The notes under the pieces are model-generated. The model searched no databases. It was not told where the DNA came from and saw nothing but the letters and a program-made list of their open reading frames with translations. The position numbers and the translations under genes were made by a program. Positions 3,664 through 63,876 of a stretch of 64,000 bases of DNA are shown here, piece after piece (positions within the stretch are counted from its first letter, which is position 1; each line of letters begins with the position of its first letter). Source of the DNA: a virus (taxonomy: Duplodnaviria > Heunggongvirae > Uroviricota > Caudoviricetes); IMG/VR virus record IMGVR_UViG_3300047323_000678; one strand, given 5' to 3'.

Positions 3664-4377
3664 TTAAATTTTAAGTCGTTTTTTAGAGCGATTAGGTTCT
3701 TTTTCTTCATTAATTGATAAATTTGTGACTAGATCATTTTTCAATAAATTATTGTCCAAAAATGGTTTTGAATCCTGTGTTAACTTTACTCTTATATGAT
3801 GTGGATTAAATCCTACATCTTTAAGGAAATAATATTGCGGATTAATTTTAAAATTCAAATGCTCTTGAGACAAAAAGAACTTAACTACAGGATCATTAGA
3901 AGATTTGGCAGCTAAATCAAATTCATTAAGCATGGCTTCATTACCTATCGTTTCACAAATATGAGGATATGAAGTCAAAAGAATAATATTATCTATATGC
4001 CCAAATTTACAAGATAAAGAAAATCCGCGTTTGTAAGGTGGATTAAATTTAATAGCTGTAGCATGATGAATTAAAACTTTTAAACTTTTAAATAAATTGT
4101 TTTTACAAGCATGAAGAAAAAAATCATTTAATTGTGAATACGGATTAGGTTTAATATTTTCATATGGCATCAAATAATCAACAATTTCATGGTGATCATT
4201 ATTTAATGCTTGCATGAGTCCGTTATAACCATATTCATGCAAATTTACATTATGTTTGAGGCTTTTGTCATGCATAAAATATTTTACAAAATCTAACCTC
4301 CCCCTTATACAAGCTTCAATAAATATATCTTCAACCTCTCCTTGGGAGTAATCATCTTCATTTATAATATTTTTCAT
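3664..4377 (-). CDS. Ankyrin-repeat-like protein with the C-terminal basic tag
   Basis: FIEACIRGRLDFVKYF, ALNNDHHEIVDYL, SCKFGHIDNI repeats; ends SKKRLKI. Confidence 0.7.
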   Translation of the reverse strand: MKNIINEDDYSQGEVEDIFIEACIRGRLDFVKYFMHDKSLKHNVNLHEYGYNGLMQALNNDHHEIVDYLMPYENIKPNPYSQLNDFFLHACKNNLFKSLKVLIHHATAIKFNPPYKRGFSLSCKFGHIDNIILLTSYPHICETIGNEAMLNEFDLAAKSSNDPVVKFFLSQEHLNFKINPQYYFLKDVGFNPHHIRVKLTQDSKPFLDNNLLKNDLVTNLSINEEKEPNRSKKRLKI

Positions 4378-4561
4378 ACTTAGATGTAATAATAGTTGTC
4401 TATATTCATTTTATTTAATTTTAAGTAGAAATCCAAATTTATATATATTTTTAAATGTATTTTATGGCTGAACACAGTAGAAAAATATATAAAACATTTT
4501 AAAAAATCACGCTATAATCATTACATAAATCAGGAACACATATATTAAAGTGTTTTAAAAC

Positions 4562-4657
4562 TGTCGGGAATTTTTACAGTAGTTAAGAAGTGAAAACCGA
4601 CAGTATATGTAAGTCATTGATTGGATTGGTTTTCTTGTGGTTGGCACGAATTTTGCT
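4562..4657 (+). promoter_or_regulatory. Enhancer (TGT-N11-ACA), IHF site and sigma54 promoter
   Basis: TGTCGGGAATTTTTACA 4562-4578; TAAGTCATTGATT 4610-4622; TTGGCACGAATTTTGCT 4641-4657 (GG-N10-GC). Confidence 0.8.
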
Positions 4658-4717
4658 ACATATCTAGTGTTTCGTAAAATTTAAATTTTCTTCTTAATCC
4701 AAAACTTGGAGGTTCTA

Positions 4718-5398
4718 ATGGTTACTAAATTCAAAACTCTGCTGGCTACTGCAATGATCGCTTTCTCCTTCTCGGCTCAAGCGGGTATTATTTTGACCCA
4801 AGGTACTGCGGTTACTGATCCTTCGCATACTGAAAACTTTGAAAGTGGTACTGCGGGTAATAACATCACTGACCAATTTTCTGCCAATGGTCTGACTTTC
4901 AAAACTTTGGGCGATGCAGGTATTGCTTTGGTTGGTAGCAATGTCTGCCCCAATACCAATGGGGTATCAGGTAAATATCTTGCAATGGGTATGCGGTACC
5001 CATGCACTCAAAATACTGCACTGAATGCAGTTTCGATGATGTTTGATGGTGATGTTGAAGCACTGTCTTGGACTGGTTTCAGCCGCACTATTGGTAATGG
5101 CTTTAAAGTTGAGTTTTGGAAAGATGGTCAAATGCTTGATAGTAATAGCACCTTTTATGACAGCTTCAATAAGTTTGAAAACAAAACTGTCCTCGTAAGT
5201 GGTGGGGTTTTCGATGAAATCCGTTTTATCGAAGCGAGTGGTTTCCAAGGTTTCTTTACTATTGACAACATGGCATGGAAAATGGCTCCTGTTGTAGTTG
5301 AACCGCCTGTTTCGGATGTTCCTGAGCCTAGCATTGCTCTGCTGTTCGGTGCAGGTATGATTGGTATGGGCTTCATGCGCAAGAAAAAGGCAGTTTAA
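4718..5398 (+). CDS. PEP-CTERM sorting-domain protein
   Basis: Signal peptide ending AQA; C-terminal VPEPSIALLFGAGMIGMGFMRKKK. Confidence 0.92.
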   Translation: MVTKFKTLLATAMIAFSFSAQAGIILTQGTAVTDPSHTENFESGTAGNNITDQFSANGLTFKTLGDAGIALVGSNVCPNTNGVSGKYLAMGMRYPCTQNTALNAVSMMFDGDVEALSWTGFSRTIGNGFKVEFWKDGQMLDSNSTFYDSFNKFENKTVLVSGGVFDEIRFIEASGFQGFFTIDNMAWKMAPVVVEPPVSDVPEPSIALLFGAGMIGMGFMRKKKAV

Positions 5399-5488
5399 AT
5401 TGGCAATAATCTGAGAAAACCTAGCCAAGAGGCTAGGTTTTTTTGTATTTAAAATTTGGAAAAATGATTTTCTACCGAAAATTTTAAT

Positions 5489-5583
5489 TGTCGATATTCT
5501 TTACATCAACAATGTAAATATAGAAATAGAATATATAAGTGATTGATTTCATTATAAATACTGTACTTGGCACAGTATTTGCT
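5489..5583 (+). promoter_or_regulatory. Second enhancer, IHF site and sigma54 promoter
   Basis: TGTCGATATTCTTTACA 5489-5505; TAAGTGATTGATT 5536-5548; TTGGCACAGTATTTGCT 5567-5583. Confidence 0.8.
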
Positions 5584-5638
5584 CTATAATAAATACAATT
5601 TAAAGTAGTTTCTATCAATGTTCAAAAGAGGGGATTCC

Positions 5639-6322
5639 ATGATGACTAAATTTAAAGCACTGATTAGTGCAGCATTGTTTGCTGTTTCTTTCTCGGCTCA
5701 AGCCAATATTATTCTTAATGGTGATAAAGGACTAACCAATACCAATCATTTTGAAAATTTTGATAATGGTTCTGTAGGAAATAATGTATCAGAACAATTT
5801 GCAAGTAATGGAATTAATTTTGATACTTGGGGCAAATCGGGTATTACTTTGACTACCAATAGTGTCTGCAACAATGCTGATGGTGGCATGTCAAATCAAT
5901 ACCTCATGATGGGTATGGCTTATCCATGTGCTAAAGACAATAAAAAAGTCAGTATGGTGTCACTGATGTTTTCAGAAAATGTTTCGGAACTGTCTTGGTT
6001 AGGCTTTAATCGTGCGATTGGCAAAGGTTTTACTATTCAGGCTCTTTATGATGGCATGATTGTTTCAGAGCTTGATTTTGATAATAAAAATCAATTTGAA
6101 AACAAGTATGTAAACATCTCAGGTGATATTTTCAACGAACTACGCTTCATTGAAAACGGCAACTGGACTGGTTCGTTTGGTATTGATAACATGGCTTGGA
6201 ATGTAACTACAGCAGTTCCAAGTGGTGAAGTTCCATTGCCTGGCTCTGTAGCCTTGATGGGCATTGGTATGCTTGGATTAGGTTTCATGCGTAAAAGGTC
6301 TAATCAGGTTAATCGTAACTGA
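5639..6322 (+). CDS. PEP-CTERM (VPLP variant) protein, paralog of the upstream gene
   Basis: Signal peptide; C-terminal VPLPGSVALMGIGMLGLGFMRKR; shared QFxxNG, FENK and IDNMAW blocks. Confidence 0.9.
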   Translation: MMTKFKALISAALFAVSFSAQANIILNGDKGLTNTNHFENFDNGSVGNNVSEQFASNGINFDTWGKSGITLTTNSVCNNADGGMSNQYLMMGMAYPCAKDNKKVSMVSLMFSENVSELSWLGFNRAIGKGFTIQALYDGMIVSELDFDNKNQFENKYVNISGDIFNELRFIENGNWTGSFGIDNMAWNVTTAVPSGEVPLPGSVALMGIGMLGLGFMRKRSNQVNRN

Positions 6323-8905: not shown

Positions 8906-8925
8906 ATTTCCTCAATATTTTTTTA

Positions 8926-11175
8926 TTATAATTTTATGCGTTTATTTTTAACTTGAGTAGGGGCATCTAAATCACCTTGCATTTCTTTATAAGATAAATG
9001 CATTTTTAAATAATTTTGATAATCACTAGTAACTTCTTGATTTTCAAAAAATTTAGTAATAAAGCTAGGTATGTCTTTCTCTTCAAATAAATGTTGATCC
9101 ATTAATCCTGCAAATTTAATTGCAAAATTAGAGCTACTAAAGAATTCTTGTGGAATCTTTTTTAAATCTTCAGGTGAACTCGCTAAACATTTAATAACGA
9201 TATCAGTGTTATATGCTAAATTTTCATCTAAAGATGAATAACTAATAGGACCCATCTCTAAAATACGAGTAATAATTTGTTTATCTTTTCTAAGAGGCTT
9301 ATGTAATGAATTATAGAAAAAATTAGCATTAAAGTTATAATCAAAAGAATTGCTATCTATATTATTCAATATTTCTAAAATATTTTCAGCTTTTTTAAAT
9401 TTTGCTAATAGCTTGCTTGCATGATCATATTCAGAATACCAATCATCAACTTTATAAAACATATATTCTACTTTTTCATATTTCTCTTTAACTTTTTCAA
9501 CTTCTTCAGGGCTGTATCCCATATGTTTAAATCTACTTACAATATCTATAATATCCCGGTTTTCAATAAAGTATCTAATTTTTAAATCCTCATATTTTTT
9601 TTCATGATCTTCTAATAGTAAGTCATACATAATGTGAGAGCTAATATTTTTTAAAATTGTTCCCCCTTTTATTGCAATTGAAATTATTTCCATATTTTTT
9701 GCAAATTCTGGCCAATTTTCACTTAAAGAATTATAAAACCCTGGTTTATTAGCTATAAGCTCTTTAAAAAAATCTTTAGTTAACATACTTTTATCTAAAA
9801 AATTTTTAATCCAAGATTTTAATTTATAACCATTTACACCATGATTAGATAATATAAATTCTTTATCAGCTAAAACTGTCGGTTTTATTTGATTTTGTTT
9901 CAAAAATTTTTTCAATTCTTCAAAATCCACAGCATCTATAATATTACTTAAGAATTCTTTTTCATTAAATAATTCAGGTGGTAATTTAAATAATTTAGTT
10001 CTATTAATACTTCTTGAATCTCTTCCATTTGAATCTGTAATCAATCGTAAATATTTTTTAATTATTTCAGAGTTATTTTTATTTGTTTCATTAAGTAAAC
10101 CATAAACTGAAACAACATCAAAATCAGTATCTTTACGAGAATAACTAGAATTATATTTATCAATCAAATGCTTGACTGTTTCAGGTTGATTAATAAGTAA
10201 TTCAAAATTTATATTAGAAGTTGGTTTTGCAGAATTACCACGATATGATGTCGTTTGTTCATACATGCTAAGTTCAGATAAATAAGGTGCAATTAATTTT
10301 TCTAATAAAGTAAAATTATCAGTTTTTATTAACTGCATTAATTTATCTTGAAATATGTCCTCAGAAAAATCAATATAAAATAATCTTTGAGTTTTTTCTT
10401 TAGCATAAAATCTATTAACCAAATCGCTATTAATAGATTTTTTATTCATATCAATAAGTGCCAATTTGAAACTATCAGAATTAAGGACTTTAGCATCAGC
10501 CATTGCAATAATTTTATTAAAATCATCCTTAAATGAATCAACTGAGTTAGTTGAATATCTAGATTGTCTTGAATACTCTGCATCTGAACCTGCAATATTT
10601 TTAATTTTTTCTAATACATAATCCAAGTTAGCATAGTTGTTGTAATTATCTTCTTGCCATGTAACTTGACCTTGATTAGTCAATTTATCATTTTTTAAAG
10701 TATTAAGATCAATTTTGGTCATATCTGAAAACAAAGAGCCGATACTTGCATAATGAGTATCAATAGCACTATTAATTGCACCAGAATTTGAAAGAGGTTC
10801 TAGTTTTTTACTTTTAATTAAAAGAAGATTATCTCCTACTTCATCAAGATTAATGTAGCAGGTTTTATTTTTGTTATATATGCATTTAATATATTCAAAT
10901 AATCCTTTTCCTGGTTCAAATATATATTCATTATTTAAATCAATGTGAATAATATGCGAATCATCAGTAGAATTAATAATATAAAGAGCTAAATTTTTAT
11001 GTAGATCATTTGTTAAATCACCATTGAGATTAAAAACCTCATTTTTCTTTGGCTGATCAACAAATTCTTTTAATTTTTTAAAATCAATTTGTACTTGCTG
11101 ATTTTTATAACTTATTTCTTCTTTTATAGGATTGACAATCTTTAAGAGGTCACTTATAGAAATTTCTGTTTTCAT
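8926..11175 (-). CDS. Large hypothetical protein, paralog of 6695..8905, with the basic tag
   Basis: Same conserved blocks; ends NKRIKL. Confidence 0.75.
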   Translation of the reverse strand: MKTEISISDLLKIVNPIKEEISYKNQQVQIDFKKLKEFVDQPKKNEVFNLNGDLTNDLHKNLALYIINSTDDSHIIHIDLNNEYIFEPGKGLFEYIKCIYNKNKTCYINLDEVGDNLLLIKSKKLEPLSNSGAINSAIDTHYASIGSLFSDMTKIDLNTLKNDKLTNQGQVTWQEDNYNNYANLDYVLEKIKNIAGSDAEYSRQSRYSTNSVDSFKDDFNKIIAMADAKVLNSDSFKLALIDMNKKSINSDLVNRFYAKEKTQRLFYIDFSEDIFQDKLMQLIKTDNFTLLEKLIAPYLSELSMYEQTTSYRGNSAKPTSNINFELLINQPETVKHLIDKYNSSYSRKDTDFDVVSVYGLLNETNKNNSEIIKKYLRLITDSNGRDSRSINRTKLFKLPPELFNEKEFLSNIIDAVDFEELKKFLKQNQIKPTVLADKEFILSNHGVNGYKLKSWIKNFLDKSMLTKDFFKELIANKPGFYNSLSENWPEFAKNMEIISIAIKGGTILKNISSHIMYDLLLEDHEKKYEDLKIRYFIENRDIIDIVSRFKHMGYSPEEVEKVKEKYEKVEYMFYKVDDWYSEYDHASKLLAKFKKAENILEILNNIDSNSFDYNFNANFFYNSLHKPLRKDKQIITRILEMGPISYSSLDENLAYNTDIVIKCLASSPEDLKKIPQEFFSSSNFAIKFAGLMDQHLFEEKDIPSFITKFFENQEVTSDYQNYLKMHLSYKEMQGDLDAPTQVKNKRIKL

Positions 11176-14881: not shown

Positions 14882-15202
14882 TTAAACTGCAAAATCGTCT
14901 TTATTGCCACCTTTAGACAGAATGGTTTGCATCCATTTTGGGGTCTTCCCACGCCCGGTCCAAGTAGCACCAGTCTCAGGGTCTTTAAACTTCACATCGG
15001 GCTTTTTACGGCTATGGACAACCTTTTGTGGCTGATAATCCGAAAGAGCTTCTTCATCAAAAAGGTCTTGAGGGGAAATACCATATTGTTGAATCTTAGC
15101 TTTCATTTCATCAATGACCTCCCCGATGCGAAGCATATCAGCTTGCTTACGGAGCTTTTCAATCTGAGTCATCAGAGTTTCGTAGCTAATATTATTTCCC
15201 AT
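14882..15202 (-). CDS. hns: H-NS family nucleoid protein
   Basis: N-terminal coiled coil; KFKDPETGATWTGRGKTPKW DNA-binding motif. Confidence 0.93.
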   Translation of the reverse strand: MGNNISYETLMTQIEKLRKQADMLRIGEVIDEMKAKIQQYGISPQDLFDEEALSDYQPQKVVHSRKKPDVKFKDPETGATWTGRGKTPKWMQTILSKGGNKDDFAV

Positions 15203-15663
15203 AATAATCTCCAGTCTTGGTTTAATTAAAAACAAATAAATTTAAAATAATCGGAACTTAAAAATTTTTTACTGTAGAGCTTGGACTCAGCACAATTTAA
15301 TTAGTTCCACTTAATGCGATAATTATTTTAACTAAAAAGCTACTCAATGTTGCGCGAGGTATGTGGCCATTATAAGTAAAAATATCTACATCGCCCCCCC
15401 TAGTAGGACTATACCTACTATGAATATGTAGTCTCTAGACGACATTGTGTAGGACTGAAAATTTATCAAAATCATCAAAAAAAGTACATTAAATTTTAAA
15501 TTATTTGTATGTTTTAAGGATATTTTATGTAAGTCGTTGATTAGAAAGGATTTTTCTCAAATAAAAAAATTGGATTTTAGCATTAAAATGCTTTTCCTAT
15601 TGGAAATTTTGAGTTATAATGAGTCCATTAGGAAATAAAATTCAATAGAGAAATAATTTAAAT

Positions 15664-29286: not shown

Positions 29287-29679
29287 ATGAATATAATTTT
29301 TAATGAGCAACCTAATATATCTTATTTTTTCAGCTTAGATGATCTTCAAGAGGAGTTAGAACAAGGTTATGCAATGCCTATTGAGTCATCAGGTAAAAAA
29401 TCTGTATTAGTTTTTCAAAATGTTGATGATCATCGTGATGGAAATGGCTTGGCTGTTTTATGGTTGATAAAAGGCAAAGGAAGGTTTTATTTGGATAGCG
29501 AACCTATTGAAATGAAAGTTGGAGATGTTTTAATATTTAATGACAAAATCGAACATGGTTTCGAATCCGACGAAGTTTGTGTAGCAATAAATGTTCTTTT
29601 AGAAAAAGAGTATAACTTAGATGAAGTTAAAGCATTAATCAAAGAATTAAATAAACCACAAAGAAAAATTAAGCCTTAA
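29287..29679 (+). CDS. Cupin-fold protein
   Basis: DHRD...LWLIKGKGRF...VGDVLIFNDKIEHGF. Confidence 0.7.
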   Translation: MNIIFNEQPNISYFFSLDDLQEELEQGYAMPIESSGKKSVLVFQNVDDHRDGNGLAVLWLIKGKGRFYLDSEPIEMKVGDVLIFNDKIEHGFESDEVCVAINVLLEKEYNLDEVKALIKELNKPQRKIKP

Positions 29680-36011: not shown

Positions 36012-36046
36012 TGTATATCAATATATTTTATTAGGTGAGTGAACAA

Positions 36047-37000: not shown

Positions 37001-37213
37001 AAATTAATTAATATTCAGTATTATTGTAAGGCAGATTTTTAAGGGTCTGCCTTTTGATTATTAAAATCAAAAAGAGAATAAATAAATATATATAAACTAA
37101 AATAGTTTATTAATTTAATTCGAGTATAGTTATATTATTAGCCAAATATTTGACTCAAGTAATAATAATTATTATATTTAATATGCTCAACTAGAATAAG
37201 GTAAGAGGTAGTA

Positions 37214-38902: not shown

Positions 38903-39077
38903 GCTTTAATTAAAAGGAACCTTCGGGTTCCTTTTTTATTTATATATCTCAATTAATCATAATGGTATTAAAATTAGATGAGTATTATTACCTATTGAAT
39001 TAAATAAAAATTAATATATTATTTACCATGCATAATTATAGTCTAATATGCATAGAGATATAAAGTAATGGAAAGTG

Positions 39078-40712
39078 ATGAAAAAAGAAATATTAAGTAA
39101 TAAAAAGTTAATATGTAGTTTATTATTAACGATAAGTTTAGGGTTAAGTTGTAATTCAATAGCAGAAACAAACACATTAAAGAAAGGTTCAGCAGATTCA
39201 ACTTCTATAGAAACAATAGGATTAAGTTCAACAACAACACCCACAAAAAATTTCCAGGCAAGTTCAATTAAGCCATTTAACAAACTAGGATTAACCTGCA
39301 CCACTCCGTGGGGACAAATAATTCAAGATAACACTGAAATTGCAGCTTATAAAACTTCCACAGGAACATATAACTATACAACAGGAACATATGCAGACGA
39401 TTGTATAGAAGAACAAAGACATTGCACGAATGGTGTTTTAAGTGGAAGTTATCAATATCAGACTTGTACAATTAAGCCAGTAAATGGAACTTGTGGTATA
39501 GCCAATGGTGCTTATTATACTTATCCAACAAGTGGGCCGGCTTCAACTGATCAATGCAATCCAAGTTATACATATGGCGGTAATCCACCAGCGGACGAAT
39601 CACCACCATCAGTCCCAGCTACATCTGGAGCATATTTAAATACAACTACCAATGTATATAATTGGACTTGTTCAGGTGAAGCAGGCGGTAGCTCTGCAAG
39701 TTGTTTTGCTTATAGAAGAATTAATGGTCAATGTGGTTCTTCAACAAATTCTTGTAATTTAGGGAATTCAGCTAATCCATCATCAACCGATAATTATAAT
39801 CCTAATTATAAATGTAGTTGCACAACAAATACCTCAGGAGTAACAACTTGTTCTGCTAATGCATCAGGAAATCAGACTTGCACAGGTGGATATAAAGATA
39901 CTACTTATGCTTGGAGTTGTATGGGTATTAATACAGGCACAAATGCTTCATGCAGCAATAATGTTTATATAAGCAGCAAAGATACTCCTGTTGCACCACC
40001 ATGCGGGGCTACAAGTCAGGCACAATCTTCTGCTTGTCCAAGTGGTTATAATGGAACGCAATCTAGAACCAATACAGTAGATTCTTGCACAGGAAGTGTT
40101 ATTATTTATGGTTCTTGGAATACTTCAAGCTGTACTCTTGCATGCACAAACAGTTATTCAACTCAATCGGCTAGTTGCCCAAGCGGTTACAGCGGAACAC
40201 AATATAGATCAGTAACTACAAATTCTTGCACAGGAACTTCTTATGGTTCATGGGACACTTCAGGTTGTACTGCTGTTCCATCATGCACAAATAGTTATTC
40301 AACGCAATCAGCTAGTTGCCCAAGCGGTTATTCAGGAACTCAATATAGGTCAGTAACTACAAATTCTTGCACTGGCACTACTTACGGTTCATGGGATACT
40401 TCGGGTTGTACATATAATGCACCATCATGCACAACTAGTTCATCAACTGAATCAGCTAGTTGCCCAAGCGGTTATACTGGAACTCAAACTAGAACTGTAA
40501 CTACAAATTCTTGCACTGGTACCACTTATGGTTCGTGGAATACTTCAGGTTGTACTGTTGCTGCTCCAAGTTGTTCAGGAGCATACAGAACTATGAACTC
40601 TGGAGCATCTTGTTGGGGTGAACAATATCTTTCAAATGGTAGTGGAGGATGTTCTTGGCAAAAAACAGGAGATACTGGGGTTTGGTCAGCCGGTTTCTGT
40701 AGGTGGAGATAA
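39078..40712 (+). CDS. Secreted Cys-rich putative adhesin, copy 3 (four repeats, unique C-terminus)
   Basis: Nearly identical to copy 2 up to the repeats; ends GVWSAGFCRWR. Confidence 0.8.
   Translation: MKKEILSNKKLICSLLLTISLGLSCNSIAETNTLKKGSADSTSIETIGLSSTTTPTKNFQASSIKPFNKLGLTCTTPWGQIIQDNTEIAAYKTSTGTYNYTTGTYADDCIEEQRHCTNGVLSGSYQYQTCTIKPVNGTCGIANGAYYTYPTSGPASTDQCNPSYTYGGNPPADESPPSVPATSGAYLNTTTNVYNWTCSGEAGGSSASCFAYRRINGQCGSSTNSCNLGNSANPSSTDNYNPNYKCSCTTNTSGVTTCSANASGNQTCTGGYKDTTYAWSCMGINTGTNASCSNNVYISSKDTPVAPPCGATSQAQSSACPSGYNGTQSRTNTVDSCTGSVIIYGSWNTSSCTLACTNSYSTQSASCPSGYSGTQYRSVTTNSCTGTSYGSWDTSGCTAVPSCTNSYSTQSASCPSGYSGTQYRSVTTNSCTGTTYGSWDTSGCTYNAPSCTTSSSTESASCPSGYTGTQTRTVTTNSCTGTTYGSWNTSGCTVAAPSCSGAYRTMNSGASCWGEQYLSNGSGGCSWQKTGDTGVWSAGFCRWR
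40002..40571 (+). repeat. Intragenic tandem repeats, unit about 141-144 bp
   Basis: Same unit as in copy 2. Confidence 0.85.
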
Positions 40713-49262: not shown

Positions 49263-50726
49263 CCTAAACGAGCGTAAAACACCGTCCTTCAGGGGGTGAT
49301 AAAAGCTCGCCAACCCAATATGGGTTGATATTTAATTATTTTAGATTAATTCAATTTAAAAGTAAATTAACACACTAGCTTATCGACAAATGTGGTTAAA
49401 TTTAATAATCTGATTAACTATGAGTAAAATTATAAAACGAGCGTATAAATTTAGGTTTTATCCACAAAAAGATTTAATTATTCTTTTGGCTAAAACCTTT
49501 GGTTGCTCTCGTTTTGTTTATAATCAGACTCTCAAATATTCTGAAGAACATTATAAAAATAAGTTTCTAGATAATCATAAATTGGTTGTTAATCCGAATT
49601 ATAAGCCATTGAGTTCTACTGATAGAATTAATTATATTAAAACTCTTAAATCTAACCATGAATATTCATGGTTGAAAGAAGTTAGTTCTATTGCTCTGCA
49701 ACAGTCTGTTATGCATCTTAATACTGCATATGATAGATTTTTTAAAGGTATTGGTGGTTTTCCCCAATATAAAAAGAAATTAAATAGAAATTCATTTACT
49801 ATTACTGGTAAAGGGTCTTTGCACTTTGATGAGAATTTTTTGAAAAATAAACATTTCTATTTACCAAAATATGCTAAACCATTAAATATCAAGTTTAGTA
49901 GAAATTTTAATCATTTGGCTGTATCTTCAGTTACTATTTCTCAGGAACCTTCAGGTAAATATTATATTTCATTTTTAGTTGAAGAATCTATTCAAGCTAA
50001 AGAAGTAAAGAATCAAAGCAATAATATTCAACAGAAAACTAGCTATGACCTAGGATTGAAAACAACAGCTAAAATATATGATGGTAATAATTTTTATGAT
50101 TTTAATTTACCTGAATTAATCAAAGCTGTTGATAAAAAATTGAGAAAAGCTCAAAGAATAATGAGTAGAAAACAAAAAGGAAGTAAAAATAGAAATAAAC
50201 AAAGAATTAAAGTAGCAAAGCTACATGAAAAAAAATTAAATATATTAACAGATAATTACCACAAATTATCCACAAAAATAATCAACGAAAACCAAGTGAT
50301 TGTTAGGGAGAATTTAGCTGTTAAAAATATGATGCAAAATCGTAAGTTAAGCAGGGCAATTCATCAAGTAGCTTGGTCTAAATTCAATAATATGATAACT
50401 TATAAAGCCCAATGGCATAATAGAGAGATTATTGAAGCAGATAGATTTTATCCAAGCTCTAAAGAATGTAATTGCTGTAAGCATATCAATCATGGATTAA
50501 GTTTAAAGCACAGAGAATGGACATGCAGTAATTGTAATGCTGTCCATGATAGAGATGAAAATGCTTGTCTAAACTTACATAGATATAAAAAAGCTACCGC
50601 AGGAACTGCGGCTAATGCTTGTGGAGGAAATGTAAGACCTAAATCTTCAAAGAAAATTATTTCTAAGAAGACGAAGGCTGTTTCCAACGAAACAAGAATC
50701 TAATCCTTTTAGGATTGGTAGTTCAA
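49263..50726 (+). mobile_element. IS200/IS605-family element carrying only tnpB (IS1341-like)
   Basis: TTTAT just before a left-end hairpin (GAGC..CACC..GGTG..GCTC); right end AATCCTTTTAGGATT..GTAGTTCAA; no tnpA; ends are inferred. Confidence 0.75.
49420..50703 (+). CDS. tnpB: RNA-guided endonuclease TnpB
   Basis: AYKFRFYP...FGCSRFVYN HTH; RuvC residues in YDLG, RENL and DRDENA; CxxC zinc finger. Confidence 0.95.
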   Translation: MSKIIKRAYKFRFYPQKDLIILLAKTFGCSRFVYNQTLKYSEEHYKNKFLDNHKLVVNPNYKPLSSTDRINYIKTLKSNHEYSWLKEVSSIALQQSVMHLNTAYDRFFKGIGGFPQYKKKLNRNSFTITGKGSLHFDENFLKNKHFYLPKYAKPLNIKFSRNFNHLAVSSVTISQEPSGKYYISFLVEESIQAKEVKNQSNNIQQKTSYDLGLKTTAKIYDGNNFYDFNLPELIKAVDKKLRKAQRIMSRKQKGSKNRNKQRIKVAKLHEKKLNILTDNYHKLSTKIINENQVIVRENLAVKNMMQNRKLSRAIHQVAWSKFNNMITYKAQWHNREIIEADRFYPSSKECNCCKHINHGLSLKHREWTCSNCNAVHDRDENACLNLHRYKKATAGTAANACGGNVRPKSSKKIISKKTKAVSNETRI

Positions 50727-54482: not shown

Positions 54483-54589
54483 AACTATGAAAAATGTAAA
54501 AGAAGTTAGACTTTACATTTTTTAACTAAATATATATATTGATTTTTTCCAAATAAATGTTATCCTTGCTTCATTGTAAGGATAACATT

Positions 54590-55783
54590 ATGCATTTATA
54601 TTTCACCGAAGGAGTTTTTGAGTTTTACGATAAAAATGTAAAACGAATGATTAAGACTAAAAATACAATTCCTTTTATTATTAATCAGGATGGCAAGTTA
54701 ATAGATGAAGTAAATGACTATCTATTATATAAAACAGAATATGATTGGAATCCACAATCAAATAGTCCTAGAACGAATGCAGAACATTTGTTGCACTTTT
54801 TAGATTTCTGTTTATACACAATTGATGTTGATTGGATAAATATATCTTCAACAGAAATTAATCAATATATCCTTTACATGACTAATAATGGTAATTCAGA
54901 AAATACCATTAAATGTAGAATTATCGCTATTTCTTCCCTATTTAAATGGCTATTTGATAAATCCTATATCAATCAAAATCCATTTAATTCATTTTCTAAT
55001 AAAATTGTTAAAAGGAATATTAAAACCTTTATCAATAATGGAGGAACTAAAAGTTTTAATGTTTCTTCTGTGAAATCAAAAATTATTAAAGATGCTTACG
55101 AAGAAGAAATTCCTACAGTTATAGAAATGAAAGATTTTTATAATTGTTTATCATATGAAGATAAATTAATGGCTTTAGTATTAATTGAGACTGGTATAAG
55201 AAAAGAAGAGCTTATTCAGTTAACTACAGGAATGTTACACTCAATGCGTGAGAGTCATACAGGTAAATCTTATCAAATGTTTTTGGATGCTAGCAAAATA
55301 AGGATTAAATATAACAGAAGTAGAAATATTGTTATTAGTAAAGAATTAAGAACACAATTAGTAAAACATATTTTAAGTAAAGAATATCAAAAAAGATTAA
55401 ATAAATATAAAGCTCATCATACTAATAAAGATGATTTGATATTTATTAGTTTACGAGGTAATGAGTATTCACCAGATAAATTAAATAAAGCTTTTGATAA
55501 AGCTTGTAAAGAATCTGGTTACTTCAAAAAACATCAAAAATCTATTACTCCACATACTTTACGACATTTCTTTGCTTCCAACTTCATTAGAAGAAAGGAG
55601 CAAGATGGAACAGATATGGAAAGTGCATATATGTATTTAAGTCAAAGATTGGGACATTCTACTCCTGATGTCACAAAAGCGTTTTATGTAAAAATAATTA
55701 ATAAAGCTAAGCAATTAGAGGATTTAGAAAGATATTCTGAAGACTTTATTAGTGATTTCTTAGGGGCTGCTCATGAGGCTTGA
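54590..55783 (+). CDS. Tyrosine recombinase
   Basis: ETGIRKEEL, HTLRH, LGHS, FY catalytic set. Confidence 0.93.
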   Translation: MHLYFTEGVFEFYDKNVKRMIKTKNTIPFIINQDGKLIDEVNDYLLYKTEYDWNPQSNSPRTNAEHLLHFLDFCLYTIDVDWINISSTEINQYILYMTNNGNSENTIKCRIIAISSLFKWLFDKSYINQNPFNSFSNKIVKRNIKTFINNGGTKSFNVSSVKSKIIKDAYEEEIPTVIEMKDFYNCLSYEDKLMALVLIETGIRKEELIQLTTGMLHSMRESHTGKSYQMFLDASKIRIKYNRSRNIVISKELRTQLVKHILSKEYQKRLNKYKAHHTNKDDLIFISLRGNEYSPDKLNKAFDKACKESGYFKKHQKSITPHTLRHFFASNFIRRKEQDGTDMESAYMYLSQRLGHSTPDVTKAFYVKIINKAKQLEDLERYSEDFISDFLGAAHEA

Positions 55784-57452
55784 TAATAGAAGAAGATTAA
55801 AGAAAAAAGATAATATCATTGATTTCAATTTAGCTTTATTAAATCCTAAATATGATAATTCTGAAATGTCTTATGGAGATAAGTCTTGGATTATAGAACC
55901 AGAGAATAGCTCTTTAACTAAAATTAACTTGTATAAAATTTTTGCTGAAGAAGACTTTAGATACTATATTCATGATTTAAAAAATTTGCGCTTTTACTTC
56001 ATTAGTGAGAAGTCTAACCAAGCTCATAGAACTCTAGAAGAAATGAGCTTTAACCTAAAATATTTTTATCAATATTTAAAAGTAAAAGAACAATATTTGC
56101 ATTTACACGAAATTGGTTTTAATGAATTATTAGAGTATTCTAATTTTTTAAAATTAAATAATTCAAAAAAATCGGATAGAAAATTCGCTGATATCAAAAA
56201 AGTATTAATTGGTCTACATCATTACTCATTAGAAGTTCATGAAGATATAAAAAATAATAATTTTCCATTAGTAAAATTCCAATCAAATGCGGATAAAAAA
56301 GAGGAATTTTATACAAAAGATGAATATGTAAATTTATCTAAAATGATTGTCGAAATTATTAATGATTATTTTAATGATAATGTGCCAGAACATTTATTTG
56401 TTAAAGCCTCATTTTGGTTAATGGCTTTCTGCACTGGTTTTAATATGACAGGGGTTCAAAGTTTAAAAGGTGAATCATTTTCTATTATTGAGGAAGATAA
56501 GAATAGTGTTACTTATTTAATAATTGGTGAAAAAAATAGAAATAATGATGGATTTCAAAAGGCTGTTATTAAGCTAAACAAGTCTGAAGAATATTCTAAA
56601 ATCTTTATCAAAACTTTAAATAAATTAAAGGATTTAAGTAAAGAGATTTCTTCTATAAGTAAATCATTTGATAAAGATTTTTTATTTCTTGCTTATAGAC
56701 CAAACTGGAAAACACAAGAGCGCACAAAACAGTATTTTAGATATAATGGTGAATGGTTTAGCCATAATGTTATTGCAAAAAAATACTTTAAGAAACACAA
56801 CACAGAACATTTATTTTTATCAGCTAGAAAAATAAGGAATCAGTATTCATTAGAATTCTTTAACTTAAGTAAAAGTGAAGAATTTGTAGCAAAAGTAATG
56901 AATCACAGTAATGTAAAAACAACGATTGAACATTACATGAAATTTAAGCTTTCTGATGAGACAGTAGTTAAATTTCAATTATTTCAAGAATTGTTACTAA
57001 AGTTTTCTAATAGTGTAGAAATAGATTGGTCTTTATACCAAAAATCATTAGGTATTCAAAATCGCTCATTAGAAGATTTAATGAAAGATTTATCTACAGG
57101 TGTCCTAGATACACCAATGGGAAATTGTTCTAATAAAAAAGACGAACAAGGTAATATTTGTGACAGCTATATCAAATGTTTTAGCTGCAAAAATTATTCG
57201 TTAATTTCAGATAAAGATTTATGGAAAATATATTCATTTAAAGAGTCCTTGGAAGAAACCAAAAAAGATTCAGAATATTACAAAGAGCATTATAAACCTA
57301 TCATAGAAAGCATTAATAATTTTATATCAAATATTGATAAAACTTATTTATTAAATTTAAGAAAAAAATACAAAGAAAATGGAAAGCACCCATTTTGGAG
57401 AAACCCAATAATGTTAAAACAAATAACAACAGAATATGAGGCAAATATATGA
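55773..57452 (+). CDS. Degenerate tyrosine-recombinase-fold protein with a C-terminal Cys cluster
   Basis: CTGFN (R replaced by N), RKIRN, MNHS..TTIEHY; C..C..CFSC. Confidence 0.75.
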   Translation: MRLDNRRRLKKKDNIIDFNLALLNPKYDNSEMSYGDKSWIIEPENSSLTKINLYKIFAEEDFRYYIHDLKNLRFYFISEKSNQAHRTLEEMSFNLKYFYQYLKVKEQYLHLHEIGFNELLEYSNFLKLNNSKKSDRKFADIKKVLIGLHHYSLEVHEDIKNNNFPLVKFQSNADKKEEFYTKDEYVNLSKMIVEIINDYFNDNVPEHLFVKASFWLMAFCTGFNMTGVQSLKGESFSIIEEDKNSVTYLIIGEKNRNNDGFQKAVIKLNKSEEYSKIFIKTLNKLKDLSKEISSISKSFDKDFLFLAYRPNWKTQERTKQYFRYNGEWFSHNVIAKKYFKKHNTEHLFLSARKIRNQYSLEFFNLSKSEEFVAKVMNHSNVKTTIEHYMKFKLSDETVVKFQLFQELLLKFSNSVEIDWSLYQKSLGIQNRSLEDLMKDLSTGVLDTPMGNCSNKKDEQGNICDSYIKCFSCKNYSLISDKDLWKIYSFKESLEETKKDSEYYKEHYKPIIESINNFISNIDKTYLLNLRKKYKENGKHPFWRNPIMLKQITTEYEANI

Positions 57453-59149
57453 ATAATTTAAAAGTTATTTATTATGATTTTGCCAAGGATAAACAATTAA
57501 ATAAAAATGAATTGGTAGTTTCGTTTGATCATGGTGAAGCAAAATCGTTTTATGGTGATGATATATGGGATTTTACATATGAAAATTCCAATAATGTATC
57601 TCGCCATAAAGTAAAGATAAAATTTTTTATTTACAATGACTATCCAAAATTAAAAGAGGCAATAAAGGATATTTTATACAAACAATTAAGTAATGGTGTA
57701 AAAACAACGACAATAGAAGCTAAATATACTCAAATAAGAGTGTTTTTTGATTATATTATTAGTGAATTAAATATATTCGACATTAATGATTTAAAAATAG
57801 AGCATATTCGTTTATACATAAAGCATGTTAAAGATATGAATCTTTCTTATTCTACTTGTAAAAATAAATTATTAATATTAGAGAATTTATTTTATAAATA
57901 TAGAAAAGAATTAAAGTATAAATTAAATTTCCATCCATTTGAAGGAAAAGTATTTAAAACTTTAATCCATAAATCTAGTAATGTAAAAAGTATTAATCAA
58001 ACTGAAATTATTCCCGATGAAACTTGGAAAAAAATTATTGCAACAACAATTAATAAAATCAATTCATATAAAGAAAATTCAGAAATTGAAGCAATCATTC
58101 ATGCTAATTGGATAGCAGAATATGAAAAAAAGAAAAATGGAAATCATAAAGATAAGACTTTGGATTTCAGAAAATTATTTAATAAGCCGGAATTCATTAA
58201 AAAAAGTAAAGGTTTACAACAATATAAAAGCATTACTGAACATAAAACTTATATCGGAGAAATAATAATTGCTTGTGGAATTATTATTCAAGCTTTTACA
58301 GGAATGAGAATTTCAGAGTTAATGTCATTGAAAAGGAACTGCTGTGAGAAAGATGAAATTAATATAAATGGAAATAAGTTTATTATTAAGAAATTAAATG
58401 GGTTAACTTTTAAATATGAAAGACAAGTTCAAAATGGGCAAGTAGGTAAAAAAGCTGATTGGTTATGTCCCGATATTGTGGCTGAAGCCATTGAAGTATT
58501 AGAGAATATTAACACTACAGCACATTATATTTTTAGAGATAAAGGTATAGAAGAATATTTATTTACTTTCTCTAGTATGAAAGGAACAGATAAATTAACA
58601 ATGTATAATGTTTCTGAAGAATATAAAGAATTTTTAGAAAGAAATAATATTGAAATAAACTTTAAGTTAACATCTCATTGCTTTAGAAGAACATTGGCTC
58701 GTTTCTTTGCAAGAAATTTATTAAATCTGCCTGTTGAATCCTTAAAAGAGCAGTTTAAGCATTTTTCGAAAGATATAACCTTATATTACATGAAAGAGGA
58801 CTTAAAGAATGATGGTTCATTTAATGAATTAATTAATGATTATGTAAAAAACACTGACAATAAATTATTATTTGAAGAAGTAAGCAATAAATTCAATAAT
58901 TCAATTTTAAGTGCAAATAATCTTGATGAAATTAGATGCTTTGTTGGTGGTAAACAAGTCAGTTTAATTAACGAATATATGGCAACCTTAGAAAAAGAAA
59001 ATAAAGGAATAAGTCCATTAAAAAGCTTAACCTGTGAAGGAACAATTATTTTACCAGGTATACATTTAGATTATTGGAAAGAAATGCTTATATTATATAA
59101 AGATTTAATAGAGATGGAGCCTAATTCCATATGGTACCAAAGTGATTGA
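57449..59149 (+). CDS. Tyrosine recombinase (3' end probably frameshifted)
   Basis: FTGMRISEL, HCFRR, QFKH...TLYY. Confidence 0.88.
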   Translation: MNNLKVIYYDFAKDKQLNKNELVVSFDHGEAKSFYGDDIWDFTYENSNNVSRHKVKIKFFIYNDYPKLKEAIKDILYKQLSNGVKTTTIEAKYTQIRVFFDYIISELNIFDINDLKIEHIRLYIKHVKDMNLSYSTCKNKLLILENLFYKYRKELKYKLNFHPFEGKVFKTLIHKSSNVKSINQTEIIPDETWKKIIATTINKINSYKENSEIEAIIHANWIAEYEKKKNGNHKDKTLDFRKLFNKPEFIKKSKGLQQYKSITEHKTYIGEIIIACGIIIQAFTGMRISELMSLKRNCCEKDEININGNKFIIKKLNGLTFKYERQVQNGQVGKKADWLCPDIVAEAIEVLENINTTAHYIFRDKGIEEYLFTFSSMKGTDKLTMYNVSEEYKEFLERNNIEINFKLTSHCFRRTLARFFARNLLNLPVESLKEQFKHFSKDITLYYMKEDLKNDGSFNELINDYVKNTDNKLLFEEVSNKFNNSILSANNLDEIRCFVGGKQVSLINEYMATLEKENKGISPLKSLTCEGTIILPGIHLDYWKEMLILYKDLIEMEPNSIWYQSD

Positions 59150-59203
59150 AGAAGTAGTTATAAATTTAGAAAACGGAAATGCTTATATAGTGAAAGGTAA
59201 ATA

Positions 59204-59590
59204 ATGAGTTATACAACAGAAGAAATTTTATGGTTAGCTATTAAAGACATTGAGAATGGCACAGCCAAAACACTAGATGAAGATCCAATCAATGGTCTTC
59301 TTACTAAAAATAAAAAACTGTCTAAAGTAAATGTGAGTTTGCAATCTGCAAAATATAATGATGGAAAAGCTATTACTAGACCCACTATAGACACTTATGA
59401 AGCGATTTGTGATTACATTGATGGGAAATCATCTAGGAATGACACTAGGCTATTAAAAGACGAAATAAAGAAGCTAAAAGAGAAAAACAAACAATTAGAG
59501 GAAATTATTATTGAGACATCAGAATTAAATAAAAAACTAGCTTTAGAAAATAGACAAATGAAAGAGTTAGTTAAAAAGGAAATCAAATGA
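59204..59590 (+). CDS. TnpC-like small protein with a C-terminal coiled coil
   Basis: Position after the recombinases; ITRPTI HTH-like segment followed by a coiled coil. Confidence 0.55.
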   Translation: MSYTTEEILWLAIKDIENGTAKTLDEDPINGLLTKNKKLSKVNVSLQSAKYNDGKAITRPTIDTYEAICDYIDGKSSRNDTRLLKDEIKKLKEKNKQLEEIIIETSELNKKLALENRQMKELVKKEIK

Positions 59591-60666: not shown

Positions 60667-60746
60667 AAATTAAGCCCCTAAATGGGGCTTTTTTATTGCC
60701 TATTAATTTTGATTTGGTACAATTAATAAAACATAATTATAAAGAT

Positions 60747-61394
60747 ATGAAACAAACAATTATAGCTAAAGATAAAGAACACTTAGAACATCTTATTCAA
60801 AACGAAATAAATAAGAATGGCTATAATTGTGATTTAAACCATATTGATGTATCTAATATTACTGATATGAGTTATTTATTTCATCAGTCAAAATTTAATG
60901 GAAATATTTCAGAGTGGAATGTATCGAATGTTAAAAGTATGGAATTCATGTTCTATGAATCTAAATTCAATGGTGATATAAGTAATTGGGATGTCTCTAA
61001 AGTTATAAATATGATTGATATGTTTAATAGCTCCAAATTTAATGGTGATATTTCAAATTGGGATGTATCCAAAGTTGAAAGTATGTATTCCATGTTCCGT
61101 TGTTCTAGCTTTAATCAAGATATTTATACATGGAATGTTTCTAAATTAGAAAATATAGATTTTATGTTTGCATTTTCAAAATTTAATAATGATTTATCTA
61201 ATTGGAAACCATATTGTTTAAGAGAAATTAACCGAACATTTGAAGAATGTAGCGCCCCTACTCCATATTGGTTTAAATTTGAAAACAAAAATAAAAGAAA
61301 AATAGCTATTGACAATTATTGGTTAGCTAAGGAATTAGAAGAAAGCTTATCTGATAAAAACCTGTCTATAAAAGTAAAACAACACAAAATATAA
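60747..61394 (+). CDS. DUF285/BspA-like repeat protein with the C-terminal basic tag
   Basis: [18 protein letters not shown]; [13 protein letters not shown] repeats; ends VKQHKI. Confidence 0.9.
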
Positions 61395-61545: not shown

Positions 61546-61592
61546 GAGAATTAATTTCCATTTGATAAAATTAATAAAAAACATTAATAAAT

Positions 61593-62162
61593 ATGAAAAC
61601 TACCATTGTAACTAAGAATAAAGAGCATTTAAAACTTTTAATCCAAATAAAAATAAATAAAAATGGTCTTGAATGTGATTTAAATCATATTGATGTTTCT
61701 AACATAAAAGATATGAATTGGTTGTTTTATATTTCAGAGTTTAATGGAGATATCTCAAAATGGGATGTATCCAATGTAAATAGTATGGAAGGAATTTTTT
61801 CGAATTCAAAATTTAATGGAGATATTTCAAAGTGGAATACATCCAAAGTAAAAAGTATGAGAGAAATGTTTAAGGGGACAAAGTTTAATGGAGATATCAA
61901 TAATTGGGATGTATCCAATGTAAATAATATGGAAGAAATGTTTTCTTATTCGCACTTTAATGGTGATTTATCTAATTGGAAACCTATTAATGTAGAAAAA
62001 ATTGAAGAAATTTTTTATCAATGTCCTTCACCAATTCCTTATTGGGCTAGGTTTGAAAATATTGAAGACAGAATAAAAGCTATTAATAATTTTTGGTTAG
62101 CTAAAGATTTACAAGAAGATTTATCAAATAATAAAGTGCAAGCAAAGAAGCCAAAAATTTAA
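61593..62162 (+). CDS. DUF285/BspA-like repeat protein with the C-terminal basic tag
   Basis: Paralog of 60747..61394 with one fewer repeat; ends AKKPKI. Confidence 0.9.
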   Translation: MKTTIVTKNKEHLKLLIQIKINKNGLECDLNHIDVSNIKDMNWLFYISEFNGDISKWDVSNVNSMEGIFSNSKFNGDISKWNTSKVKSMREMFKGTKFNGDINNWDVSNVNNMEEMFSYSHFNGDLSNWKPINVEKIEEIFYQCPSPIPYWARFENIEDRIKAINNFWLAKDLQEDLSNNKVQAKKPKI

Positions 62163-62300
62163 CTTTGCATTTTTGTTATACATATGCAAAGACTGTAAAT
62201 TGTTCTGGAACACCGAAGATACAAGGGATTTTCGAGAAAAAATTTTTAAAAAAGCTGCTTAATAAGTAAAAATAAAGCCCCTGATTGGGCCTTTTTTATT
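62160..62300 (+). repeat. Intergenic repeat unit, copy 2
   Basis: TAACTTTGCAT...TGTTCTGGAACACCGAAGATACAAGGGATTT...AAAGCTGC...AAGCCCC. Confidence 0.8.
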
Positions 62301-62553
62301 GCCCATTAATTCTTAAATGATTAAATTAAGAATTAAATATAAAACAAAAATAGTATCTAAAGATACATTTCTATACGAAAATTAATTATGTGTGGAAAAC
62401 TTGCGTAAAATCAACTTTCCGTACGGCATCATATATTATCATTAATGCAATGATGCAAAAAACGAAGAATGCATCAGTACCCTTTAAAGCTAGTTGGTTT
62501 GGTTTCAACTGCTTTAGGGTTGTTGTTCCTTCACCTACTATATGGAGTTAATG

Positions 62554-62745
62554 ATGAAAAAAATTATCTTGAAAGTAAAACAGTTTATTGCTGACGAAAA
62601 TGGTGTTACAGCATTGGAGTACGGTCTGCTTGCTGCCCTGATCGGCCTAGTGATTGTTGGTGCTGTGACTACCCTCGGTCAGAATATTGAACAGGTCTTT
62701 ACGACGATTGCCACTGCTCTCTCCACTGCCACTACCCCTGCGTAA
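62554..62745 (+). CDS. flp: Flp family type IVb pilin
   Basis: FIADENG|VTALEYGLLAALI Flp motif. Confidence 0.95.
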   Translation: MKKIILKVKQFIADENGVTALEYGLLAALIGLVIVGAVTTLGQNIEQVFTTIATALSTATTPA

Positions 62746-62798
62746 TGGTCTACCCCCCCGGATTGGTTCATTCATCCGGGTTTTTTGCAGGAGGCACA

Positions 62799-63335
62799 AT
62801 GATTATTTCCGTATACCTTGATATGGGTTTGGCTGTACTAGTCAGTTTGGCGGCGCTTACTGATCTGACTAGTCGCCGCATCCCCAACCTGTTGTTACTC
62901 ACTGGTTTTTGTGGTGCTTTGTTGGTTAATCTACTGTCGCCAGCGCCATTTACCGCACTGCTGTGGGCATTGGTTGGAACCACCACTGGATTACTGATCT
63001 TCTTGCCACTGTATTTCCTACGCGGAATGGCTGCTGGAGATGTCAAATTCATGGCAACAGTAGGAGCCTTTAGCACTCCCATTGATACTTTGTATATTGC
63101 CTTTATCGCTGTTTGCTTTGGCGGTGTGATGTCGCTAGCTCTAGTGGTCGCTAACGGTCGGCTGCGTATGCTAGGAGCCAACCTCTCGGCATTACTACTG
63201 ATGCGGATTCCCGCCGTGTCCATGCCTAGTTCGAGTGTGGGCAGCATTCCCTATGGTGTCGCCATCGCCTGTGGCACTTGGTTTGTGATTGCACAGCGTT
63301 ACCATTGGTTCGCAGCTTTGGCTTCTTTGGTATAG
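62799..63335 (+). CDS. cpaA: A24-family prepilin peptidase (CpaA/TadV)
   Basis: TDLTSRRIPN, GMAAGDVKF, IPYGVAIACG; SD GGAGG; much higher GC than the flanks. Confidence 0.92.
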   Translation: MIISVYLDMGLAVLVSLAALTDLTSRRIPNLLLLTGFCGALLVNLLSPAPFTALLWALVGTTTGLLIFLPLYFLRGMAAGDVKFMATVGAFSTPIDTLYIAFIAVCFGGVMSLALVVANGRLRMLGANLSALLLMRIPAVSMPSSSVGSIPYGVAIACGTWFVIAQRYHWFAALASLV

Positions 63336-63411
63336 TTAAAATTGCCTATTTATTTACAATACGAATTATATGTGTAAAATAATAAATATAAATGTGAAAG
63401 GTAAAAGAAAT

Positions 63412-63876
63412 ATGTATAAAATTAGTGAGATTTCTGCTTTATTAGAAGAAATTAAAGTTGATAAATCAGAAGGATTAAATTCTAACCTTGTGGATTTTGT
63501 TAAAAAAATAAAAAATATTGAAGAGGAGTTCCAAAAGATTAACTCTAATTACTCTATAGAAATTACACCAACTAAAAATACAGAGAATGAACAATGTATC
63601 TTTTTTGTTTTATTCTATAAAGATAAAGAGCTTTTTCATTATACTAGTTCTTTACCTTTCCATAAATATAAAGAATATGATGCATATGAGACTGAATCTT
63701 TTCATGCATTACAAGGTAGTTTAACTTTTAATTTAGAAAAAACAGTTTTTTTAAATCAAGAAAAAGACTTATATAATCAAATTATAGAGGACAAGTTAAT
63801 TAATAGTTTTTTAAATAATGAAAAAGAGTTAAAAACTATTAATGAATCTAAAAACTCTTTAAAAGTAAAAATATAA
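63412..63876 (+). CDS. Hypothetical protein with the C-terminal basic tag
   Basis: Ends KELKTINESKNSLKVKI. Confidence 0.7.
   Translation: MYKISEISALLEEIKVDKSEGLNSNLVDFVKKIKNIEEEFQKINSNYSIEITPTKNTENEQCIFFVLFYKDKELFHYTSSLPFHKYKEYDAYETESFHALQGSLTFNLEKTVFLNQEKDLYNQIIEDKLINSFLNNEKELKTINESKNSLKVKI

Follow-up and report, generated by a model that had tools for sequence, protein, structure and literature searches.

A single C-terminal tag of 20 residues closes ~150 proteins, which form some 26 unrelated groups, in a plasmid-like element of 2.23 Mb, which we examined through two pieces of DNA: a 64,000-nucleotide stretch of the IMG/VR virus record IMGVR_UViG_3300047323_000678 (hereafter, the window, at its full length) and G001, a 180,807-bp IMG/VR record. 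Together, these pieces amount to 245 kb, or 11% of the contig. An initial annotation of the window had described a shared ending on at least 12 of its proteins, a count that is real but understates the scale (~150 in 245 kb), and had proposed that the carriers are either delivered by a secretion or conjugation machine of the element or loaded into a virion. The latter half of this proposal finds no support. For the former, we consider it somewhat more likely than not that the tag is a substrate signal read by the element's type IVB (Dot/Icm-like) coupling complex, a reading that is supported by the statistics of the tag, the plasmid-like nature of the element, its IcmW-like and DotL-derived genes, full DotL in sister contigs, and the tracking of one DotL clade by the tag.

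Across the 151 carriers of the window and G001, the consensus is (E)L-x-x-[ED]-L-[PDNS]-x-N-x(4-5)-K-K-hydrophobic-K-hydrophobic-stop, which spans ~20 residues and includes an Asn-rich linker. Its geometry is regular, with the last helix leucine lying 13-15 residues before the C-terminus in 128/151 carriers. Residue -2 is lysine in 150 carriers and arginine in one, against a K:R background of 4:1 in these proteins. Both lysine codons are in use at the tag (AAA 110, AAG 26; n = 137), and this synonymous variation around a fixed lysine at -2 argues that the tag is not a DNA repeat and that the constraint acts on the protein. Net charge changes from -1.1 (residues -22 to -9) to +3.0 in the last 8 residues, for a total of +2.1 over the last 25. 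Position -3 is hydrophobic in 73% of cases (family-weighted), although the selection rule itself favored hydrophobic residues there; substrates of type IVB (Dot/Icm) systems are said to follow a RalF rule of a hydrophobic residue near position -3. In the AlphaFold model of one carrier, the 61593 protein, the tag leucines lie on the final helix (residues 157-179), and the last ten residues are predicted to be coil (pLDDT ~55).

The tag is not explained by amino-acid composition. Among 72 plausible window genes, selected by hand out of 100 open reading frames (ORFs), 14 end in K-[ILVM] where 1.6 are expected from internal positions, in line with the K-[ILV]-stop ending first described. The rule [KR].?[ILVMPHK][KR][ILVMPF]$ is satisfied by 17/72 genes (0.23 expected; when the last 30 residues were shuffled 2000 times, no more than 4 genes did so), and the combination of [ED][LM]..[DENY]L with a K-[ILVM] end by 9/72 (0.006 expected). 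The L-x3-L-x3-L helix of the initial annotation fares less well in its strict form, found in only 7/72 genes, than in a two-leucine form (10/72). Because these end rules were composed after inspection of the data, we ran a held-out profile whose training set was limited to 118 tagged ORFs from G001, with a threshold at the 99.9th percentile of internal pseudo-termini. This profile places 14/72 window genes above threshold against 0.07 expected, namely the 13 genes named in the initial annotation and a cupin, whereas on unrelated AT-rich loci it yields 3/184 matches, all weak. When 72 tails are compared with NCBIfam, 71 have no match at E<=1 and the remaining one is a chance match; the ESM Atlas gives no usable feature match for the tail. 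In the open-access literature, we found no published description of this tail or of the DLGL tail of megaplasmids described below.

All 13 C-termini quoted in the initial annotation are found in the window sequence. Its positions are left-hand gene coordinates, which on the plus strand mark the start rather than the tail, and two of them, 60747 and 63412, fall on start codons inside the genes at 60696-61394 and 63370-63876. The carriers and three excluded genes are as follows, with profile scores in bits.

3664..4377, minus strand: ankyrin-repeat protein (Pfam), tag at the 3664 end (…LKNDLVTNLSINEEKEPNRSKKRLKI), 25.9 bits
6695..8905, minus strand: 736-aa protein without a family assignment, paralogous to 8926-11175 and tagged at its 6695 end, 18.7 bits
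8926..11175, minus strand: 749-aa protein with one weak DUF4116 repeat (below cut-off), tag at the 8926 end, 12.6 bits
18533..18916, plus strand: 127-aa protein without a family assignment, tagged at its 18916 end, 23.6 bits
18920..19303, plus strand: 127-aa protein paralogous to 18533, tagged at its 19303 end, 15.9 bits
24602..25849, plus strand: 415-aa protein of no family, tagged, 25.9 bits
29221..29679, plus strand: cupin-domain protein (Pfam), weaker tag with the end K-I-K-P, 6.7 bits
32394..33518, plus strand: 374-aa protein of no family, tagged, 32.3 bits
33515..34690, plus strand: DUF4116-repeat protein (Pfam), tagged, 31.1 bits
50783..51826, plus strand: 347-aa protein of no family, weaker tag, 9.2 bits
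52522..53739, minus strand: 405-aa protein without a family assignment, tagged at its 52522 end, 29.6 bits
60696..61394, plus strand: DUF285 repeat protein (Pfam), tagged, 26.1 bits
61593..62162, plus strand: DUF285 repeat protein (Pfam), tagged, 35.9 bits
63370..63876, plus strand: 168-aa protein, weak tag with a short linker, 3.8 bits
47821..48864, minus strand: RNase H-like protein with a basic K-I-K-M end and no tag helix, not a carrier, -7.7 bits
45380..46681, minus strand: 433-aa protein whose only tag-like feature is a basic end, not a carrier, -9.6 bits
53787..54482, plus strand: RLIG1-type RNA ligase with a K-V-K-P end and no helix, not a carrier, below the profile threshold

The last three genes and the cupin are those in which a weaker tag had been suspected, and only the cupin passes the profile. 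A shorter K-x-K-P end without the helix is seen in the cupin, the RNA ligase, a DNA ligase, and others (29221 and 53787 of the window, L204:2554-3706, L282:1835-3889), and is maybe a second, minimal form of the tag. With tails removed, the 13 named window carriers fall into 10 groups; Pfam confirms the ankyrin, DUF285, and DUF4116 repeats named among them (3664, 60696, 61593, and 33515), with the 8926 protein below cut-off. The 6695 protein has no relative among viral contigs. In the full set of 151 carriers without tails, we resolve 29 groups by BLAST or 26 by phmmer, with two groups holding 103 carriers and 18 carriers being singletons. As to the claim that carriers lack signal peptides, by a hydropathy proxy, which is not a signal-peptide predictor, a hydrophobic stretch is rare in carriers (9/151 versus 76/155), but at the family level the difference is modest (8/29 for carriers versus 67/137 for others; p = 0.04). 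Host-type enzymes of the window had been noted to be untagged, and in G001 the NAD enzymes, two tRNA synthetases, photolyase, and the membrane proteins are so as well, as are the PEP-CTERM proteins of the window.

In sequence listings, the 61593 protein of the window appears on a contig of 2,230,803 bp and relatives appear on contigs of 2.217-2.224 Mb; among the 120 homologues listed, 71 have the tag. A single sequencing run, labeled as a rhizosphere metagenome and possibly the source, contains the DNA, and no RNA run with it is listed. G001 was retrieved via a tag-like DNA pattern, which gave 121 stretches from 40 of the 64 parts of IMG/VR; only G001 is dense in it, with one further single match (L165). 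Because three of its proteins have identical counterparts whose sole listing is on the 2,230,803-bp contig, we treat G001 as part of the window's replicon. In this record, 139/234 ORFs are tagged, consisting of DUF285, ankyrin, and DUF4116 arrays together with singletons (WGR, DUF1281_C, AEP-like, and unnamed), and positions 1-130000 (L196-L202) hold tandem arrays of ~65 DUF285 and ~36 ankyrin genes with frequent 4-base overlaps. G001 was found because it is tag-rich; extrapolation from the window (19% of genes) would give several hundred carriers on the whole contig. Of 79 proteins chosen from the 306 ORFs of the 245 kb, none matched a head, tail, or packaging family in PHROGs, with further ORFs scanned against Pfam. 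The window and G001 contain no tRNAs, nor do they hold ribosomal or core operons; genes of host type are merely scattered through them, and the DNA examined shows no dispersed repeat beyond DUF285 coding sequence. Searches by tblastn with the amidoligase-like, RNase H, and ankyrin proteins revealed no close plasmid, and the nearest coupling proteins in PLSDB are only 45-50% identical. The nearest plasmid-record relatives of the G001 NAPRTase are from Ralstonia and Variovorax (58-55%), which suggests that the host is likely of Burkholderiales type.

The initial annotation had proposed a search elsewhere on the replicon for coupling proteins or capsid genes, and in the 245 kb covered only type IVB parts came to light. 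One gene of G001 specifies a protein resembling IcmW_IVB (E 1.4e-10, below cut-off), with 38% identity to the IcmW encoded in DotM-DotL loci. G001 also has a 313-aa ORF (L197:18037-18978) whose residues 48-223 are 54-58% identical to residues ~195-356 of DotL, between the Walker motifs. This ORF sits inside a DUF285 array. The best Foldseek match of its protein is DotL (6sz9_A, E 5.6e-3), with the model being confident only at residues 101-190, and G001 has no TraG-D_C match, as the fragment is without that region. Stand-alone ORFs of this inter-Walker, all-alpha part of DotL occur in three elements, namely G001, L314 (14900-15535), and the Pseudomonas megaplasmid pPL1 (L403:4512-5405). A search with the fragment leads to a full-length IcmO of 804 aa (6sz9_A, E 6e-202), whose cluster members are listed on contigs of 2,217,227, 2,222,371, and 2,224,172 bp. 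Tagged DUF285 proteins are likewise listed on sister contigs of these lengths.

The tag follows one DotL clade. We assembled a wide clade of IcmO/DotL sequences as well as 80 metagenome loci (45/64 parts scanned). The loci nearest to the G001 fragment have icmW, icmV, dotM, and dotL in one neighborhood. A tagged gene is found in 10/12 loci of the clade nearest the fragment (15/231 ORFs), in 1/17 other AT-rich DotL loci (1/271 ORFs), and in 4/51 of the remaining loci (4/681 ORFs, all weak). As the loci of the clade are kin, this represents an association within one lineage rather than ten independent events. An orthologous ankyrin gene beside DotL ends in K-R-T-S-K-I or K-K-A-I-K-I in AT-rich loci and in K-R-R-A-R-A-M at 59% GC, such that the basic-hydrophobic end is kept across 25-59% GC with lysine replaced by arginine. 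As a negative control, we used generic DUF285 loci of unrelated organisms from a scan of genome contigs. DUF285 proteins with the same N-cap but no tag occur in L216 (0/15 ORFs) and in 71 unrelated genome loci; the tag is added in modular fashion to families that are without it elsewhere. Divergent DotM matches in 3/400 Gammaproteobacteria genomes are not accompanied by tags. Many DotL sequences of the wide clade (P0133-P0417, P0489) are interrupted immediately behind Walker A by an insertion of 250-370 aa that matches intein/LAGLIDADG families in Pfam; one sister contig has it (1169 aa), and two do not (804 aa).

We also sampled cultured megaplasmids with DotL and DotM, namely pMPPla107 (400/972 kb), pPL1 (400/1168 kb), Bosea pANAM02, RPME01, and Vibrio CP099927. 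In pMPPla107 (Pseudomonas; L380-L399), R-[DE]-x-x-[FLM]-[GA]-x-D-L-G-L ends 65/406 ORFs from 38 groups (0.68 expected), and in pPL1 (L400-L419), F-[SG]-x-D-L-G-L ends 33/418 ORFs from 19 groups (0.53 expected). Both plasmids encode DotL along with a DotM homologue. Only 1/98 of the DLGL carriers has a hydrophobic stretch, and among the 43 scanned with Pfam, only a Sir2 receives a name; many of these carriers, which are 400-550 aa long and arranged in arrays, may be diverged paralogues. The genome paper of pMPPla107 (PMC6482414) contains no mention of "C-terminal" or "type IV" in the portion of its text examined. In Bosea pANAM02 (L420-L439), P-x-P-R-[LMF] and P-x-x-R-P ends are weakly enriched (~10/320 ORFs), and this Pro-rich end is possibly a third dialect.

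If the tag is indeed a type IVB substrate signal, the amphipathic helix and the free K-hydrophobic-COOH end would dock on a DotL-DotM-IcmW complex, most likely on the all-alpha domain of DotL, a stand-alone copy of which lies among the tagged genes. The recurrence of such copies points to DotL as the reader. DotM is a less likely one, as the tag fails the E-block test (net +2) while much of the basic patch is kept in the DotM of this clade. Cargo would then be threaded C-terminus first into a mating partner, probably a bacterium, where the ankyrin, DUF285, and DUF4116 solenoids may act as binders that aid establishment of the element or exclude competitors. There is precedent for such transfer, as conjugation systems move proteins, with that of Cre reported to be supported by positively charged C-termini (PMC11288057), and the XVIPCD signal is described as bound by the all-alpha domain of VirD4 (PMC8740702). 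On present evidence, the tag resembles a type IV translocation signal, yet lies outside the E-block and XVIPCD families. A broader and more doubtful extension is that giant type IVB plasmids inject several hundred repeat-protein binders into bacterial mating partners, with or ahead of 2 Mb of DNA, by means of a lineage-specific zip code (K-K-x-K-I here, D-L-G-L in the Pseudomonas megaplasmids) that co-evolves with the coupling protein; the stand-alone all-alpha copies would be adaptors or decoys, and the whole a plasmid-side precursor state of the Dot/Icm effector arsenal.

Several observations weigh against a type IVB signal. The co-location of IcmO and tagged proteins on the sister contigs rests on identical sizes in bp rather than on read DNA, full-length DotL on the window's own contig is absent among the 120 DotL matches listed and that contig is not one of the 80 metagenome loci, and no relaxase was seen in the element DNA examined. 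The tracking of the DotL clade by the tag would also be expected of some different reader specific to that clade. In Legionella, DotM is reported to bind acidic tails (PMC5802825); the DotM of this clade keeps much of the basic patch, yet the tail has a net positive charge (+2 over 25 residues). No common tail was found in Vibrio CP099927 (508 ORFs, ~490/939 kb) or in Methylibium RPME01 (310 ORFs, 399/599 kb), although both have DotL and DotM. Finally, the end resembles the ClpX degron of MuA, RRKKAI, as given in PMC8138137, and directly downstream of the icmW-like gene in G001 lies a Lon-like AAA ATPase (L196:279-1742; TIGR00763 E 1e-28, below cut-off).

These last two points would suit a degron or unfoldase handle, in which a AAA+ protease of the host or element (ClpX-, Lon-, or FtsH-type) grips the K-K-x-K-hydrophobic end, making the binders short-lived or remodeled. 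The disordered last ten residues of the predicted model fit this explanation, as does the report that pMEGA4 encodes ClpP and three FtsH-like proteins (bioRxiv 2025.09.30.679422). We nonetheless regard it as unlikely: a degron needs no helix at a fixed spacing of 13-15 residues, the nearly invariant lysine at -2 (150/151) stands where MuA has alanine, and the Pseudomonas megaplasmids end the same kind of gene set in an acidic DLGL. We likewise see little probability that the tag docks its carriers on a cytoplasmic scaffold, chaperone, or compartment encoded by element or host, with action inside the carrier cell and the secretion system as a fellow traveler. The carriers are soluble and tracking of a clade suits any element-encoded reader, but no candidate scaffold was found in the 245 kb, and an upstream helix followed by a free basic-hydrophobic C-terminus is the usual layout of type IV signals as described in PMC9302130 and PMC11288057. 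The recurrence of stand-alone DotL all-alpha-like ORFs in G001, L314, and pPL1 also speaks against such docking.

Ankyrin arrays together with Dot/Icm parts, as in Legionella, raise the idea of injection into a eukaryotic cell (protist, fungus, or root) from what is perhaps a symbiont chromosome, with the basic end doubling as a nuclear localization signal. The consensus of such signals is K-K-x-K, which ends such as P-T-S-K-K-L-K-L resemble. We find this very unlikely, given that the 245 kb contain no ribosomal or core operons and only scattered host-type genes, as in the pMEGA megaplasmids, and that no eukaryote-like enzymatic effector domain occurs among the carriers scanned. Hardly any probability attaches to a packaging signal for the virion of a giant phage. 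IMG/VR files G001 as a provirus and DUF285 arrays occur in jumbo phages, but the 79 proteins lack a structural match, the sole IMG/VR record dense in the tag is a piece of the window's own contig, and DUF285 proteins are untagged in the phage-collection records L207 (0/39) and L216 (0/15). DotL, DotM, and IcmW, moreover, occur in the same clade of elements. To our knowledge, 2.2 Mb also exceeds any phage genome. A functionless by-product, in which a 3' segment of DNA spreads by recombination among tandem genes, is already largely refuted: 103/151 carriers do lie in two paralogue arrays and tagged genes often overlap the next start codon, but 18 carriers are singletons, synonymous codons vary while the lysine at -2 is fixed, and the chemistry of the tail is kept across 25-59% GC.

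When compared to known systems, the tag resembles in layout the Legionella Dot/Icm signals, which are read by DotL-DotM-DotN-IcmSW-LvgA and are described as occupying the last ~20 residues of hundreds of soluble proteins from unrelated families, with many ankyrins among them (PMC5802825, PMC9302130, PMC10100965). The class of machine is alike, as homologues of DotL, DotM, IcmW, and IcmV occur in the DotL clade of the tag, whereas the tag is far more sequence-specific, resides on a plasmid-like element, and probably targets bacteria. It also differs from the acidic, Glu-rich E-block that is reported to bind DotM (PMC5802825), being net basic (+2.1) over the last 25 residues. The XVIPCD of Xanthomonas is similarly a common C-terminal module on unrelated cargo (PMC8740702), and a further parallel is the stand-alone copy of the matching coupling-protein region among tagged genes. 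However, XVIPCD is characterized as a folded domain of ~120 residues with a Gln-rich tail, found on toxins and read by a type IVA system (PMC8740702), rather than a 20-residue helix and coil associated with type IVB, and in place of antibacterial effectors, the cargo here is mostly repeat solenoids with no immunity pairs noticed.

The pMEGA megaplasmids of Enterobacteriaceae (bioRxiv 10.1101/2025.09.30.679422 / PMC12633466) share with this element a Mb size, 26-28% GC, solenoid arrays, scattered host-type genes, NAD genes, and RNase H copies, and are reported to encode DotL, DotM, DotN, IcmW, and >300 solenoid genes (PMC12633466). By comparison, the element here is larger (2.23 Mb versus a maximum of 1.58 Mb), DUF285-rich, and from a metagenome labeled rhizosphere. 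Large tRNA arrays are described for pMEGA; the 11% of the contig covered by the window and G001 contains no tRNA. The main text of the pMEGA paper makes no mention of "C-terminal" motifs. The "conjutome" of F/pED208 is described as translocation of proteins by conjugation machines, with positively charged C-termini that can be signals (PMC11288057), but the signals there are diverse and spread over 16 plasmid and 32 chromosomal proteins, in contrast to one sharp motif on a fifth to half of local genes. With the MuA degron (PMC8138137), the tag shares basic residues followed by a hydrophobic last residue in a flexible end; as described there, that degron is without the upstream helix, while the tag has both a helix and K at -2. 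Finally, PEP-CTERM/LPXTG-type tripartite signals combine an N-terminal signal peptide with a C-terminal transmembrane helix, whereas the tag has no hydrophobic segment and 9/151 carriers have one anywhere.

Approximately 1/5 of megaplasmid genes are unexplained solenoid proteins, according to the pMEGA paper (PMC12633466), and a sharp common tail sorts such proteins into one functional class and serves as a predictor of cargo. Should the tag be a type IVB signal, it would show Dot/Icm-type machines recognizing hundreds of substrates through a single peptide code and mass protein delivery alongside megabase conjugation, with giant plasmids passing on protein cargoes besides DNA, and it would offer a short, portable tag. 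Whichever reader applies, the general question can already be put to the test in cultured, conjugative megaplasmids of Pseudomonas, which bear the parallel DLGL tag.

Elsewhere in the window, host-type genes (4706-6322, 14882-15235, 29676-32306, and 62745-63335) encode two PEP-CTERM proteins, H-NS, YhdP, and an A24 prepilin peptidase (50% GC). At 36035-40712, the window encodes three secreted repeat proteins, paralogous to one another and rich in Cys/Thr/Ser, that have no match in Pfam. At 54557-59590, two tyrosine recombinases flank a 559-aa protein and are accompanied by a 128-aa gene and then DUF4238, all untagged, in what we take to be a Tn554/RIT-like cassette. An IS605 TnpB (Cas12f-like) is encoded at 49420-50703.

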